In this document: positions 31,116 to 35,851 of the stretch, one piece after another | How the letters are laid out: each line of letters starts with the position of its first letter | Position numbering within the stretch: the stretch's first letter is position 1 | Sequence record: MN850609.1 | Source: Escherichia phage dhaeg | DNA: 64,000 bases | Strand: one strand, 5' to 3' | Translations under genes and position numbers: made by a program | The notes under the pieces: model-generated | Database searches by the model: none | Seen by the model: the letters and a program-made list of their open reading frames with translations, nothing else | What the model was told of the DNA's origin: nothing

Positions 31116-31616
31116 ATGAAAAAGTTAATTATCGCAATGAGTATGCTCCTATCAGGTTGCGCGGTCCAATACGGCGATGCAGTTTCGGCTGATGAAGTTG
31201 GTAAAGCTCGTATTGCAGCTGAACAGAAACAATTCGACGGCGAAATGAAATTCCGTGCTGGTTCTGGACTTGTGTATACCCGAGCTAATAATCAATGTGG
31301 TAATAACTGTGCAAAATATGCTCAAAGGGAAATCGAATTCCAACGTGAACAAGAGTCTAAGCGTGAAGCGGTACTAGCCAAACACCAGGCAGAAATGAAG
31401 CGCCAAGATGATTTGTACAAAAAGCAGAAACTGTACGCGATGTGTGTAAACCATATCAATCTACAGATTTCCGTCCACGAGGCCCGTTATTACGAAATGC
31501 TCGAAACCGAGAGCTTCGATAAGGCGCGCGATTATAAGAAACAAATCAACAAGCTTAAGACCAAAGTGCCTGCTGCAGTAGAACAGTGCATGGAATACGG
31601 TAAAGATAAGATTTAA
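31116..31616 (+). CDS. lipoprotein
   Basis: 166 aa; signal peptide with lipobox LLSGC. Confidence 0.5.
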   Translation: MKKLIIAMSMLLSGCAVQYGDAVSADEVGKARIAAEQKQFDGEMKFRAGSGLVYTRANNQCGNNCAKYAQREIEFQREQESKREAVLAKHQAEMKRQDDLYKKQKLYAMCVNHINLQISVHEARYYEMLETESFDKARDYKKQINKLKTKVPAAVEQCMEYGKDKI

Positions 31617-31676
31617 GCAATAGAAATTTATTAAAAATAGTGTATAATGTATCTACATTCACTTGAGGAACAGATA

Positions 31677-33350
31677 ATGAAAAAGGTTGTTATTTTAGGC
31701 GCAGGTCTTGGCTCACGGTTGTATCCAATTACTAACGAAATCCCGAAGGTATTGGTTAACTACAAACAACATACTGTATTAAAACATTTGTATGATTTGT
31801 ATAGTAACCAATCAGATGAAATTATTCTGGTTATCCACAGCAAATTTAACGACCTCGTTAAAGGCTATATTAAATCCATTAACATGATTACTGGCGATAA
31901 GCCTAAATTCACTATTCGTAACGTTGATGTTGCTAATGGTTCGGCCCATGCTATCGATTGCATTGCCGAAGATATCATTGGCCATAATGTCTTGTTTAAC
32001 TGGTGTGACATCATTCCTATCGGTCATAAAGTTGAATGGGGTAACGACTACTGTTATACCTATGGAACCGACTGTCGTTTTACATTCGAAGAACCATATT
32101 TACGTGAAATTGGTACTGGTGGTGGCGTAGTTGGTTTGTATCAGGTGGCTAACTGGACAGGTTTCGACCGTTCTAATTATGGTGAAGACCTTGCTGATAA
32201 CCTGGATTCAATGGTCTATTTGACCGAACGTAAACTAGACTTTGTAGTTGATGTCGGTGACAAATTGAAACTGGCTAAGGCCCATGAAGAATCTGAAATC
32301 AATCGTGAATTTAATAAATTAGAATTCACTGAGAATCTGGCCATTAAAGTACCAACTAACGAATTAGGTAAAGAAATTCAATCTAAAGAAATCAATTGGT
32401 ATAATTCTATTGATTCTGAATTTGTTCCTAGTATTGTGGACTTTTCTCCAGGCGAATTCATTAAAATGGAACGTATCTTTGGTCGTACCATGGCAGATGC
32501 CTACCGCTTTATGTCCAAAGAAACTAAAGTCCTCATGGTTTATAAGGTCATTAGTGCATTACGTTCATTTGGTGGAACTATCGATAATCCGTCCGATGAA
32601 CAATGGTATTCTGATGTTAAGAAAGAAGTATTGGACAAGGTCCTTATTCGTAATGCTTCTATTGCTGGATTGATTGAAGGCTTTGCTCCACAAGGCATTA
32701 CCCACGTTAACGATTTCAAAGTAGGCGACCCTGAAAAACTTCTCCGCCATGCACTAGAAATTCTGTCTGAACATAAAGAACCATACCAACTTATTCATGG
32801 CGACCCGCACTACAGTAATATTATGCTGTCGGACGAAGGTGATATTAAAATCATCGACCCACGCGGTTATTTCGGTAATAGTTCTAAAGGCCCTGCGATT
32901 TATGATGAAGCTAAGGTGCTTTATTCTATCGATGGCTATGATAAATTTAACTCAGACCCTCTATGGGGTGGATTAACTCGTAACGGAACTCGTGTATTCG
33001 TTGATATCGAAAAGGTTATGCCTTTAGACGATATCCCTATGTGCACATTTAAGCACAAGCTCTGGATTGCCGTTATTTGGATGGCTCTGGCAGGTTACTT
33101 TAAGAATAACCCTCTGAAAGCTCTGGGTGCTTATTATAATGGTTTGTATCAACTGAGTGTGCTGCTGAAGCGGCATCCTCGTAAGCGTAAGCTTATTACG
33201 GGTGAATTTGTCGATGAAGTTCGTGACCCTATTACGGCTCAAATTATTACTCGTTGTCCTGATAAGTGGGTTTTGCTTGACCAGGAAACTGGTGTAAAAT
33301 ATAAACCTACAGGTTCTACTGAACTCCACAAACAATGGAAGAAAATTTAA
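31677..33350 (+). CDS. bifunctional LicC-like nucleotidyltransferase / APH(LicA)-like kinase fusion
   Basis: N-terminal ILGAGLGSRLYPITNEIPKVLV (sugar- or alcohol-phosphate NTP-transferase G-loop); C-terminal HGDPHYSNIML...IKIIDPRG (kinase catalytic loop); GAGGAA RBS; extended -10 TGTATAAT upstream. Confidence 0.65.
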   Translation: MKKVVILGAGLGSRLYPITNEIPKVLVNYKQHTVLKHLYDLYSNQSDEIILVIHSKFNDLVKGYIKSINMITGDKPKFTIRNVDVANGSAHAIDCIAEDIIGHNVLFNWCDIIPIGHKVEWGNDYCYTYGTDCRFTFEEPYLREIGTGGGVVGLYQVANWTGFDRSNYGEDLADNLDSMVYLTERKLDFVVDVGDKLKLAKAHEESEINREFNKLEFTENLAIKVPTNELGKEIQSKEINWYNSIDSEFVPSIVDFSPGEFIKMERIFGRTMADAYRFMSKETKVLMVYKVISALRSFGGTIDNPSDEQWYSDVKKEVLDKVLIRNASIAGLIEGFAPQGITHVNDFKVGDPEKLLRHALEILSEHKEPYQLIHGDPHYSNIMLSDEGDIKIIDPRGYFGNSSKGPAIYDEAKVLYSIDGYDKFNSDPLWGGLTRNGTRVFVDIEKVMPLDDIPMCTFKHKLWIAVIWMALAGYFKNNPLKALGAYYNGLYQLSVLLKRHPRKRKLITGEFVDEVRDPITAQIITRCPDKWVLLDQETGVKYKPTGSTELHKQWKKI

Positions 33351-33733
33351 TGTCGCATCGAGTAGAAAATAAGCCACATTTATGTTTTGATATCGATAAC
33401 ACAATCACGATTTGGAACCATGACCGTGATTATGAGAACTTTAAACCGGACACCGAAATGGTGTCCATGATTAATAAGCTTTATGATGAAGGGTACGAGA
33501 TTACATTGTTCACTGCCCGTGGCATGACTTCATGTGGCCCAGGTCGAATCTTGGTTGAAGTAGTTCCTGCATTGGTTAAGAATCTTGAAAAAATTGGATT
33601 GAAATATCACAATTTGCTTACACACAAGCCGAGTTATACTTTTATCATCGATGACCGAGCAATCCGTCCTGACCACTTTAAAGAATTGGTTCGTGAAGGA
33701 ACTCTTGATAGTTATAAGGCCTATCATCCATGA
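33335..33733 (+). CDS. small cap-less HAD-superfamily phosphatase
   Basis: motif I CFDIDNTIT, motif II ITLFTAR, motif III/IV K...IIDDR; start may be 33335 or 33350. Confidence 0.6.
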   Translation: MEENLMSHRVENKPHLCFDIDNTITIWNHDRDYENFKPDTEMVSMINKLYDEGYEITLFTARGMTSCGPGRILVEVVPALVKNLEKIGLKYHNLLTHKPSYTFIIDDRAIRPDHFKELVREGTLDSYKAYHP

Positions 33734-34266
33734 ATCCAAAAATCATTGTTATAGACGGCCCGGATAATTCCGGGAAGTCCACTTTAATTAAAAATCTGTT
33801 ATCCAATAAGAAATACCGCCTTATTGATTTTCCTAAAAAGATTAATGGCAAGTGTATTTCATTAGGAACTGATAACGATAAGGCTTTAGTTGAAACTCTG
33901 TATAAGTTTTTAGACCCTAATTTCGTTTATATCCTTGACCGTGGTTATCCAAGTAATATTGTTTACTCAGGATTCCTTCGTGGTGAAATGGACCCTTATG
34001 TAGAACTGGAAGATTGGAAAGGGTTTAAATCTGAATTTAACGTTATCGAGGTTATTTTAACTCGCAACCCATTAGACGAAGACTTCGAAGATGACCTTAT
34101 TAAATTAACCAAAGATGAGTTCAACCTAACTATCCAGCAATACGAAACATGTTTTGAAAACGTGTTTAAAATCTTAAATCATGACGGTCATAATAATTTG
34201 CTTAATGTTGATATGGTAGAATTAAAACGTCTGAACGAATATATTGAAAATAAGGTGAATAAATGA
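33730..34266 (+). CDS. thymidylate-kinase-like P-loop (d)NMP kinase
   Basis: IVIDGPDNSGKST P-loop and LDRGYPSNIVYSG (TMPK DRY-like motif); ATGA overlap. Confidence 0.55.
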   Translation: MNPKIIVIDGPDNSGKSTLIKNLLSNKKYRLIDFPKKINGKCISLGTDNDKALVETLYKFLDPNFVYILDRGYPSNIVYSGFLRGEMDPYVELEDWKGFKSEFNVIEVILTRNPLDEDFEDDLIKLTKDEFNLTIQQYETCFENVFKILNHDGHNNLLNVDMVELKRLNEYIENKVNK

Positions 34267-34961
34267 AACACATTACCGCTGTTAGTTTTGAAAACGCATT
34301 TAAACAAATGAACGAAGAAATCCTGGAAGCTCCACAGTTTGCAGTTGATTCTCGTATCGGACGCTGTTATGAAATTGGTTCTGCTTCAGTAGAAGTACTG
34401 GATGCCAGCACCTATAAATTCACCGACCCACGTATCAATCGTATCAGTTATGAATATGCCGAATCCTTTTGGAAATTTATGATTTCTGGTGGTACTGACG
34501 CTGCCGAAGCATTTAAGGAATACCCTAATGTTGCTAAGTTCATTGATAAGCCGAAAAGTGACGTATTGCCTGCAAACTTCAACACTTTCTATGGACCTCG
34601 AATTGTGGCCCAGCTCCCAGCCCTACTTAAAGAGCTTAAAGAAAAGGCTAACTCGCGAAGAGTTGTGTTCCAGATTCTCCAAGAACAAGACCAAGCCCTC
34701 CTTGATTCTGACGAATCCTTAGAATACCCGTGCACCGATTCAGTAACGTATTATATTCGTGATGGTCGTTTGTATGCACATACCCATATGCGTTCACAAA
34801 ACTGCGCTGTTGTTATGCAGCTGGATTTCTATCTGCAGGGTAAACTGATGGCATTTATTGCCGAACAGTGTGGTGTCGGTTTAGGTACGTATTCCCACAC
34901 CATGGTAAGTGCACACGTGTTTGAACGTGATTTTGACTACGTCCGAGGTTTCCTGAAATGA
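34263..34961 (+). CDS. 42: dCMP hydroxymethylase (thymidylate-synthase fold; gene 42 homolog)
   Basis: 232 aa; TS/dCMP-HMase family motifs (HMRSQN-like); synteny with imm and uvsX. Confidence 0.75.
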   Translation: MKHITAVSFENAFKQMNEEILEAPQFAVDSRIGRCYEIGSASVEVLDASTYKFTDPRINRISYEYAESFWKFMISGGTDAAEAFKEYPNVAKFIDKPKSDVLPANFNTFYGPRIVAQLPALLKELKEKANSRRVVFQILQEQDQALLDSDESLEYPCTDSVTYYIRDGRLYAHTHMRSQNCAVVMQLDFYLQGKLMAFIAEQCGVGLGTYSHTMVSAHVFERDFDYVRGFLK

Positions 34962-35851
34962 GTTTGTTTATCGTTCCTATTTTCAGTATGCGTAGTTACG
35001 AAACAGGTGAATATGCCGTCCTTAAGGACGGTAATTTTCAACTCCATTTAAATCGTGCTCGTCCAGGTGATTATCTGGCTTATCCTAGAAATTCGAGCGA
35101 TATCAAAGAATGCATTGAATTATTCCCAGAACTGAATTTCGTACCACTTTGGTATAAAGAAAATGCTTATGAAACCCGTAAACATTTCTGGTCCGAAAAT
35201 GAGTTTGTAGTCGATTCACTAATCGAATACTATGATTGCTCAGGACTGGTAACCGATATCACCGGTTATGATGGTGCTCATACTGTACAATTCAACTTTA
35301 ATATCACAATGGACCCTGAAGTTCCTCGTTATTATATCGACGAGTTCATTGATATTGATGTGGCTTCAGTTGAACGTTCACTTTATACTACAGTCCTGAA
35401 TCAATGCCAGAAAGACGTCCTGGTGTCACGAGGTGCATCCTCTGATAAGATTTTTGTAGACCAAAAGGTAATTAATCCTGCAGTAATTGAGCGTTACTCT
35501 GATGGTCTAGCGCCTATTAAAATTGATGGTATTTTCCATCCATTCCGTATTTCGGATAAGTGCTATCAATTCGAAAGAGTTGTAGACCAAGCTGCCGCTG
35601 AAGGTGCTCGTCTTTATATCACCGACCCGAATGATTCATTTAAGCGTGAAGACTATCGTCCTGATGTAGAGATTGTTAAATTCAAACCGAGTAAGGTTGA
35701 ATATTATCAGATTCTGAAATCAAGACCACATATCATTTATCATGAGAACCCAGGTTTAGTATTCCATCCTGGTCTGGCTGAATTCATTTATTTCGGTGCC
35801 CATATTCATTCTGAGTACGAAATGCCACGTTATGAGGACGTAGTATGCTAG
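34958..35851 (+). CDS. hypothetical protein at the beta-glucosyltransferase position; putative DNA base glycosyltransferase
   Basis: 297 aa; occupies beta-gt locus between 42 and uvsX; coupled to 42 by ATGA; no clear similarity to T4 beta-gt recalled. Confidence 0.35.
   Translation: MSLFIVPIFSMRSYETGEYAVLKDGNFQLHLNRARPGDYLAYPRNSSDIKECIELFPELNFVPLWYKENAYETRKHFWSENEFVVDSLIEYYDCSGLVTDITGYDGAHTVQFNFNITMDPEVPRYYIDEFIDIDVASVERSLYTTVLNQCQKDVLVSRGASSDKIFVDQKVINPAVIERYSDGLAPIKIDGIFHPFRISDKCYQFERVVDQAAAEGARLYITDPNDSFKREDYRPDVEIVKFKPSKVEYYQILKSRPHIIYHENPGLVFHPGLAEFIYFGAHIHSEYEMPRYEDVVC

Follow-up and report, generated by a model that had tools for sequence, protein, structure and literature searches.

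A fused nucleotidyltransferase and kinase of the Dhakaviruses as a predicted AfhE-type enzyme for cytosine hypermodification

Which sugar is activated, and for what end, by a phage protein that carries both a kinase and a nucleotidyltransferase in one chain? This question is raised by a gene at positions 31677-33350 (plus strand) of a 64,000 nucleotide stretch of DNA from Escherichia phage dhaeg (sequence record MN850609.1), the whole of which is referred to here as the window. The 1.7 kb region holding the gene matches Escherichia phage dhabil (MN850621, Dhakavirus, JS98 group), the name used hereafter, at 100% identity, and about 50 further Dhakavirus genomes at 94-99%. With a probability of roughly 0.8, the protein is the Dhakavirus orthologue of AfhE from phage HY126, of ORF53_52c from RB69 and of gp82 from DLP3, and would make the sugar donor for hypermodification of cytosine. 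The fusion architecture was noticed in 2018 and characterised by 2026, and the family, its function and its presence in the genus are already published.

The fusion protein and its relation to AfhE

The dhabil protein (557 residues) and the 562 residue product of the HY126 open reading frame (ORF), taken with its cluster from PP658200, share the same domain order and are collinear over 100% of both lengths, with 42.7% identity and an E value of 4e-131. Identity to AfhE is lowest in the kinase N-lobe region (34%), against 48% for the transferase domain and 47% each for the remainder of the kinase and for the tail, and phrog_4098 likewise matches the protein from end to end. The HY126 ORF corresponds in turn to RB69 gp53 plus gp52 (99% and 95%). 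Through this full-length orthology with HY126 AfhE and RB69 ORF53_52c the substrate can be predicted, contrary to a preliminary description of this DNA, according to which it could not be read from the sequence.

The RB69 genes ORF053c and ORF052c have been shown to constitute one protein of 561 residues, which the authors expressed, the split being a one-base database error (Thomas et al., 2018, PMC6024577); the HY126 protein matches the RB69 record in two frames, in agreement with that error. The same study reported full-length homologues in other phages, including gp43 of IME08, proposed a role in the formation of uridine diphosphate (UDP)-arabinose, and drew attention to proteins of Butyrivibrio in which the transferase-kinase unit is joined to a SIS isomerase domain (PMC6024577). 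IME08 is a close relative of JS98 (PMC2993671). In RB69 and DLP3, cytosine is replaced by mono- or poly-arabinosylated 5-hydroxycytosine, for which the ThyA homologue RB69 gp48 makes 5-hydroxy-dCMP (Lee et al., NAR 2026, PMC13326640). That work described RB69 gp52:53 and DLP3 gp82 as having a nucleotidyltransferase at the N-terminus and a kinase at the C-terminus, with 4y7t, 1jyk, 3ham and 6hwl as structural neighbours, and the Dhakaviruses were listed among the genera with a syntenic arabinosylation cluster (PMC13326640). The biochemistry of HY126 (He et al., Nat Chem Biol 2026) is followed here as far as it is reported in PMC13326640, where AfhE is a D-arabinose-5-phosphate 1-kinase that doubles as a pyrophosphorylase for UDP-D-arabinose, AfhF is a magnesium dependent phosphatase converting arabinose 1,5-bisphosphate to arabinose 1-phosphate, and the order of the route is arabinose 5-phosphate, 1,5-bisphosphate, 1-phosphate. 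The Shewanella phage Thanatos requires its homologue, TH1_060, in order to propagate (PMC12838424).

The gene, the signals upstream of it and the parts of the encoded protein are as follows.

31621..31648, plus strand: candidate sigma-70-like promoter just upstream of the fusion gene, TAGAAA-16-TATAAT, the region's best match (10/12 matches)
31664..31668, plus strand: Shine-Dalgarno sequence GAGGA, 8 nt before the ATG at 31677 (sequence read directly)
31677..33350, plus strand: AfhE-type bifunctional gene, 557 aa (full-length HY126 match and end-to-end phrog_4098 match)
31677..32291, plus strand: N-terminal nucleotidyltransferase domain, aa 1-205 (Pfam, alignment, model)
31692-31757, plus strand: G-loop, aa 6-27, within the nucleotidyltransferase domain
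32292..33176, plus strand: C-terminal kinase domain of the APH/choline-kinase fold, aa 206-500 (Pfam, alignment, model)
32796-32867, plus strand: catalytic loop HGDPHYSN and IDPRG motif, aa 374-397, within the kinase domain
33177..33347, plus strand: conserved C-terminal tail with a KWVLxDxETG motif, aa 501-557 (47% identity to AfhE)

The ORF listing gives an open frame spanning 31647-33350, and a reading of the sequence points to the ATG at 31677 as the true start; the spacing of GAGGA and the GenBank start of dhabil_107 (annotated as a 'hypothetical protein') agree, so that the coordinates first proposed are correct. The ATG at 31647 was rejected as a start, as it has no Shine-Dalgarno sequence and sits within the TATAAT-like box, while homologues begin at the MKK position and the GenBank start coincides with 31677. 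The TAA stop at 33348-33350 shares a base with the start codon of the gene that follows (TAATG). The promoter candidate is suggestive only: 20 promoter-like sites were counted in the region versus 18.4 +/- 3.5 in shuffles, which is no excess, and neither promoters nor terminators were more numerous in the scan than in shuffled sequence.

That a LicC/MurU/RmlA-type nucleotidyltransferase is joined to a LicA/APH-type kinase in a single polypeptide, as the preliminary description proposed, has been borne out by several lines of evidence. The Pfam NTP_transferase family matches residues 13-110 at 33.8 bits (cut-off 21.2) and the APH family matches residues 356-427 at 26.0 bits (cut-off 23.2). A total of 188 homologues were collected, of which 39, down to 30% identity, were aligned, and an AlphaFold2 model built on this alignment reached a pLDDT of 92.6 and a pTM of 0.88. 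A Foldseek search with the model supports both assignments, the matches being to GT-A-like and APH folds and the neighbours including 4y7t, 1jyk, 3ham and 6hwl; the possibility that the motifs belong to unrelated folds was checked in this way and found no backing. The order of the folds was also correctly given, although the first domain covers about 205 rather than 240 residues and a tail of about 55 residues follows the kinase.

Both peptide motifs that had been quoted are present, at residues 6-27 and 374-397. Residues G10, R14, K24, D111, D192, G194, D195 and K198 of the transferase part are invariant across the 39 homologues, as are K224, E238, H374-G375-D376, N381 and D394-P-R-G of the kinase part. 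The G-loop (GxGxRL...PK) and acidic residues of the nucleotidyltransferase fold are therefore intact, as are the HxDxxxxN catalytic loop and the metal-binding Asp of the APH/choline-kinase fold. Both sets are as expected in active enzymes, a sugar-1-phosphate nucleotidyltransferase in the one case and a kinase of the eukaryotic-like protein-kinase/APH fold in the other, and both domains look catalytically competent. One protein in this manner combines two steps of a single route of sugar activation, phosphorylation and nucleotidyl transfer, as had been claimed. The tail is modelled as short strands with a pLDDT of 69-85, has no Pfam match and may serve in domain docking or oligomerisation.

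When the protein is compared to curated families, it falls outside several of them. It scores 23.6 bits against the NCBIfam MurU model (cut-off 370), 21.8 bits against GlmU TIGR01173 (cut-off 366.85), over the N-terminal 100 residues only, and far below the cut-off of the RmlA model; its C-terminal domain is a kinase, with no GlmU-type left-handed beta-helix acetyltransferase. In the PDB, a sequence search found nothing beyond weak similarity of the G-loop to LicC, HddC and RmlA (E above 1e-3), which indicates that no AfhE structure has been deposited. The match to LicC itself (1jyk, E 0.0011, 51 residues) reflects fold similarity and not membership. No choline-kinase family, as expected for LicA, and no PfkB/ribokinase or cytidylyltransferase family, as expected for HldE, was reported by Pfam for the fusion at E up to 0.1. 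Measured against the curated cut-offs, the names 'GlmU', 'capsule biosynthesis protein', 'phosphoheptose isomerase' and 'mannose-1-phosphate guanyltransferase' were rejected. Most of the phage records listed label the fusion a 'hypothetical protein', and some homologues carry the names 'GlmU' and 'UDP-glucose dehydrogenase'.

A translated search of 50,697 phage records recovered the fusion in 367 of them. A frame broken into fragments, which the preliminary description had allowed for, was looked for and not encountered, with one full-length piece in 366 of the 367 records and the database error in RB69 as the one apparent split. Codon comparisons of dhabil with JS98 gave 47 synonymous differences and 1 non-synonymous difference, and those with Klebsiella phage Marfa gave 222 synonymous-only and 102 non-synonymous differences.

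The operon and the predicted route to UDP-arabinose

The fusion heads five plus strand genes with overlapping stops and starts, forming a translationally coupled operon. On one side lie the DNA polymerase gene (gene 43), imm and two small ORFs, and on the other uvsX. The interval between gene 43 and uvsX is recognised as a plastic DNA-modification region of T4-like phages (PMC6024577; PMC8056088), and the location is therefore expected and not odd. It had at first been considered unusual for the fusion to occur there, a view also countered by its intact presence in 366 phage genomes. The four genes that follow it are listed below.

33350..33733, plus strand: HAD-IIIA phosphatase, AfhF-like, 127 aa (63.2% identity to the HY126 homologue; TAATG overlap)
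33730..34266, plus strand: P-loop thymidylate-kinase-like protein, 178 aa, homologue of RB69 gp45 (37.6% identity to the HY126 homologue; phrog_761 at 6.8e-40)
34263..34961, plus strand: thymidylate-synthase-fold enzyme, 232 aa, homologue of the 5-hydroxy-dCMP synthase RB69 gp48 (80.1% identity to the HY126 homologue)
34958..35851, plus strand: DNA glycosyltransferase homologue, 297 aa, related to RB69 gp46:47 and the HY126 299-aa ORF (67.2% identity to HY126; phrog_3891 at 5e-159)

An AfhF-type phosphatase gene thus lies immediately downstream of the fusion, and linked homologues of the 5-hydroxy-dCMP synthase and of the DNA arabinosyltransferase are found between gene 43 and uvsX. The HAD protein matches PDB 9IQW at E 3.6e-54 and TIGR01689 at 5.4e-15, and is predicted to convert arabinose 1,5-bisphosphate to arabinose 1-phosphate. 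The ThyA-like protein matches PDB 9IQC, 9IQU and 9IR2 at E 2e-125, together with Pfam PF00303. The glycosyltransferase homologue is predicted to be the first arabinosyltransferase, following the assignment of RB69 gp46:47 (PMC13326640); a PDB search returned nothing close to it. In the annotation of JS98, the five genes are linked to RB69 orf052c, 051c, 045c, 048c and 047c, the thymidylate-kinase-like entry reading 'RB69 orf045c-like'.

The published route, transferred to dhabil, would begin with D-arabinose 5-phosphate from the host, presumably drawn from the KdsD/GutQ pool used for Kdo synthesis, since dhabil does not encode an isomerase. With ATP, the C-terminal kinase domain (APH fold) would phosphorylate C1, giving arabinofuranose 1,5-bisphosphate, and the translationally coupled HAD phosphatase would then strip the 5-phosphate to leave arabinofuranose 1-phosphate. 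From this product and UTP, the N-terminal nucleotidyltransferase domain would form UDP-D-arabinofuranose. The glycosyltransferase encoded at 34958-35851 would finally move the arabinose onto 5-hydroxycytosine in replicated DNA, a base that would enter the DNA as 5-hydroxy-dCMP made by the ThyA-like enzyme encoded at 34263-34961. Homology predicts the substrates, the sequence of steps, the use of UTP and the modification of the DNA at the end; the analysis itself shows the two folds, both conserved catalytic sets, the full-length orthology with AfhE, the arrangement of the operon, and the lack of an isomerase and of a second glycosyltransferase.

Additional observations have been made on this locus and its counterparts. 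The thymidylate-kinase-like gene occurs in every arabinosylation cluster examined (RB69 gp45, DLP3 gp78, HY126, Marfa and PSTCR6), and the published pathway assigns no step to its product. The HAD gene is misnamed: the RefSeq entries for JS98, RB69 and Marfa, like PHROG 1238, call it 'phosphoheptose isomerase', and its product goes under 'capsule biosynthesis protein' both in dhabil and for PDB 9IQW; in JS98, its start is annotated 15 nt too early. Upstream of the fusion, an ORF at 31116-31616 (plus strand, 166 aa, phrog_1754) with a lipoprotein signal (MKKLIIAMSMLLSG, followed by C) adjoins the superinfection-immunity gene imm and occupies roughly the position of the arabinose-5-phosphate isomerase in RB69 and HY126; it may encode another exclusion or envelope protein. 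In Providencia phage PSTCR6 (locus L011, 568-4974), the annotation divides the DNA polymerase gene into two pieces, with about 2 kb between them containing a reverse-strand ORF, probably an intron or homing-endonuclease insertion.

The reduced Dhakavirus cluster and competing explanations

Several observations weigh against a simple equation of the dhabil enzyme with AfhE. The whole dhabil genome was assembled from the window and three further stretches and then searched, and no arabinose-5-phosphate isomerase was found in it (best E 3.9), nor were an RB69 gp50-like gene, gp49 or a second glycosyltransferase of the RB69 gp3 type (best E 0.6-5 including the isomerase). RB69, HY126, DLP3 and most other carriers of the fusion encode the isomerase as well. 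Identity between the dhabil protein and the characterised enzyme is no more than 43%, and together with proteins of Marfa and of Providencia phages the dhabil protein forms a sub-clade that is 71-81% identical internally and 44-50% to all other homologues. In Thanatos, the homologue was inactive on xylose 1-phosphate with any nucleoside triphosphate (PMC12838424), a result compatible with arabinose specificity but no positive evidence for it. For the Dhakaviruses, the searchable literature yielded no analysis that identifies the modified base, and on DNA modification in Dhakavirus or JS98 it offered only genomic inference and a 2010 statement calling the question open.

The absence of the isomerase extends beyond dhabil. 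Records named after Escherichia or Enterobacteria include 184 with the fusion and 140 with the isomerase; the gap of 44 equals the number of Dhakavirus records so named, and by these counts all 44 lack the isomerase. In Klebsiella phages, 25 occurrences of the fusion compare with at most 2 of the isomerase. Marfa and PSTCR6 have the gene order of dhabil and no isomerase at the locus, with a gp50-like gene present. This gene, for a 386-aa 'peptidase', has been lost in dhabil and is kept within the cluster by Marfa, PSTCR6, RB69 and HY126 (for comparison, L010 8287-9447 and L011 8993-10156).

The strongest of the competing explanations, though an unlikely one, is that the Dhaka/Marfa/Providencia enzymes have diverged in substrate, activating a sugar phosphate other than that of D-arabinofuranose or using a nucleotide carrier other than UTP, so that 5-hydroxycytosine would bear another hypermodification than arabinose. 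If true, this would be a further DNA hypermodification, previously undescribed. It would account for the deep branch and for the missing isomerase, as well as for an identity to HY126 of 43% in the fusion compared with 63-80% for its neighbours, and the searchable literature yielded no chemical analysis of a Dhakavirus genome. Nonetheless, 103 columns reach at least 85% conservation among the other 36 homologues, and the sub-clade keeps 94 of them; clade-fixed replacements amount to only 5 columns, all of them conservative hydrophobic swaps (V/L, V/I, F/L, A/P, F/C); a specificity switch is unsupported by these changes. The glycosyltransferase and the phosphatase have to work on the same sugar, and they share 67% and 63% identity with their HY126 counterparts. 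The E. coli host isomerases KdsD and GutQ supply arabinose 5-phosphate, which makes a phage isomerase dispensable. Finally, the Dhakaviruses have been placed with the arabinosylating phages (PMC13326640).

The isomerase is an accessory of the cluster and no defining trait of the fusion protein, and KdsD and GutQ can take its place. The simplest reading is the same chemistry fed by the host isomerases, with a mono-arabinosyl base as in Thanatos, a phage with a single transferase. Since the dhabil cluster has one glycosyltransferase and no isomerase, the phage probably depends on host KdsD/GutQ for arabinose 5-phosphate and probably makes the mono-arabinosyl base. Such a milder departure from HY126, with the same product, an operon wholly reliant on KdsD/GutQ and only one arabinose on the base, is more likely than a change of substrate. 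Among the clusters compared, that of the Dhakaviruses is the most reduced: it consists of five genes, includes a single glycosyltransferase and is without both the isomerase and a gp50-like gene.

A second explanation, slightly less probable than the first, is a two-step salvage in which a free sugar or amino alcohol is phosphorylated, at its anomeric position or at a hydroxyl, and then directly nucleotidylated, as in AmgK/MurU or LicA/LicC. The folds are indeed those of MurU/LicC and of LicA/APH-type kinases, and the wording of Table 1 in PMC13326640 fits a free-sugar route, the entry for the C-terminal domain being 'phosphorylates Ara to Araf1p' and that for the HAD protein 'dephosphorylates Araf5p to Ara'. 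In its running text, where the HY126 biochemistry is cited, that paper gives arabinose-5-P, then the 1,5-bisphosphate, then the 1-phosphate. Against direct salvage stand also the scores far below the NCBIfam cut-offs for MurU, GlmU and RmlA and the translational coupling of the HAD phosphatase to the fusion in both dhabil and HY126. In addition, three homologues of about 920-946 aa (P0067, P0081 and P0097) carry HAD, SIS, nucleotidyltransferase and kinase domains in one chain, the HAD and SIS isomerase parts being physically fused to the transferase-kinase unit in P0067 and P0097, and one source names P0097 an arabinose-5-phosphate isomerase/HAD phosphatase. This four-domain Rosetta-stone fusion ties the kinase-transferase unit to the isomerase and the phosphatase, as the published route requires. 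The preliminary analogy with AmgK/MurU or LicA/LicC consequently holds for the folds and fails for the direct kinase-then-transfer salvage of a free sugar, as a phosphatase step intervenes.

A role of the operon in modifying a host or phage surface glycan (capsule or lipopolysaccharide) in place of DNA is very improbable: it is suggested by the database names 'capsule biosynthesis protein', 'GlmU' and 'phosphoheptose isomerase' and by the cellular four-domain homologue P0067 among glycan glycosyltransferases, but the names were transferred from weak family similarities below curated cut-offs, the phage operon holds a homologue of the 5-hydroxy-dCMP synthase (80% identical to HY126; PDB 9IQC, E 2e-125) within the gene 43-uvsX DNA-modification island, and in RB69 and DLP3 the arabinose sits on DNA cytosines (PMC13326640).

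Comparison with known systems

Arabinosyl-5-hydroxycytosine replaces cytosine in many T4-like phages. The modification governs how well such phages stand up to restriction enzymes, CRISPR nucleases and type IV systems, helping them to evade host nucleases, and it bears on the choice of therapeutic phages such as those of the JS98 group. No new principle emerges from the window; its modest additions are the reduced cluster of dhabil and the predicted dependence on host arabinose 5-phosphate. The misleading annotations of the fusion and its HAD partner could now be corrected.

The system closest to dhabil is that of HY126, with which it shares a HAD gene overlapping the stop codon of the fusion, ThyA-like and glycosyltransferase partners and a locus between gene 43 and uvsX. 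The two differ in that the dhabil protein belongs to a separate sub-clade with Marfavirus and Providencia phage proteins, and in that the gene order of dhabil is rearranged, the thymidylate-kinase-like gene coming directly after the HAD gene. When compared to both HY126 and RB69, dhabil is without the arabinose-5-phosphate isomerase, the gp50-like gene, gp49 and the second glycosyltransferase of the RB69 gp3 type. Activities have been reported for HY126 AfhE alone, whereas the function of the dhabil protein is predicted from sequence.

The Thanatos protein TH1_060 (P0020) has the same two domains at 43-46% identity, and Thanatos has, like dhabil, a single ara-type glycosyltransferase; it differs in host and phage lineage, and in TH1_060 having shown no in vitro activity with xylose 1-phosphate. 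Beyond the phages, the proteins of the Butyrivibrio type (P0067, P0081 and P0097) contain a homologous transferase-kinase unit, with 31-32% identity over 89% of the query, and differ in uniting four pathway steps in one chain. P0067 (924 aa, HAD-SIS-nucleotidyltransferase-kinase) is encoded at 8001-10775 of L009, a metagenome contig from sample SRR33394798, and adjoins GT11/GT2/GT25 and GT1-type glycosyltransferase genes and not DNA-modification genes, a context that suggests a cellular route to nucleoside diphosphate-arabinose for a glycan.

The AmgK/MurU and LicA/LicC pairs differ from the dhabil system in being separate proteins that act on free sugar or choline, with no bisphosphate intermediate or phosphatase step. 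In E. coli, the ADP-heptose route employs the SIS isomerase GmhA, the bifunctional kinase/adenylyltransferase HldE and the HAD phosphatase GmhB. The logic is identical to that proposed for the arabinose route: an isomerase provides a sugar phosphate, a kinase phosphorylates its anomeric position to yield a bisphosphate, a HAD phosphatase takes off the distal phosphate, and the NDP-sugar is formed by a nucleotidyltransferase that is fused to the kinase. The phage HAD protein has also been found to resemble heptose 1,7-bisphosphate phosphatase (PMC13326640). HldE, however, combines a PfkB/ribokinase-type kinase with a cytidylyltransferase-type transferase, folds unrelated to those of the dhabil fusion, and its domain order is reversed. 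The ADP-heptose route is the closest analogy in design, ahead of AmgK/MurU or LicA/LicC, with a likeness that is convergent and not homologous.

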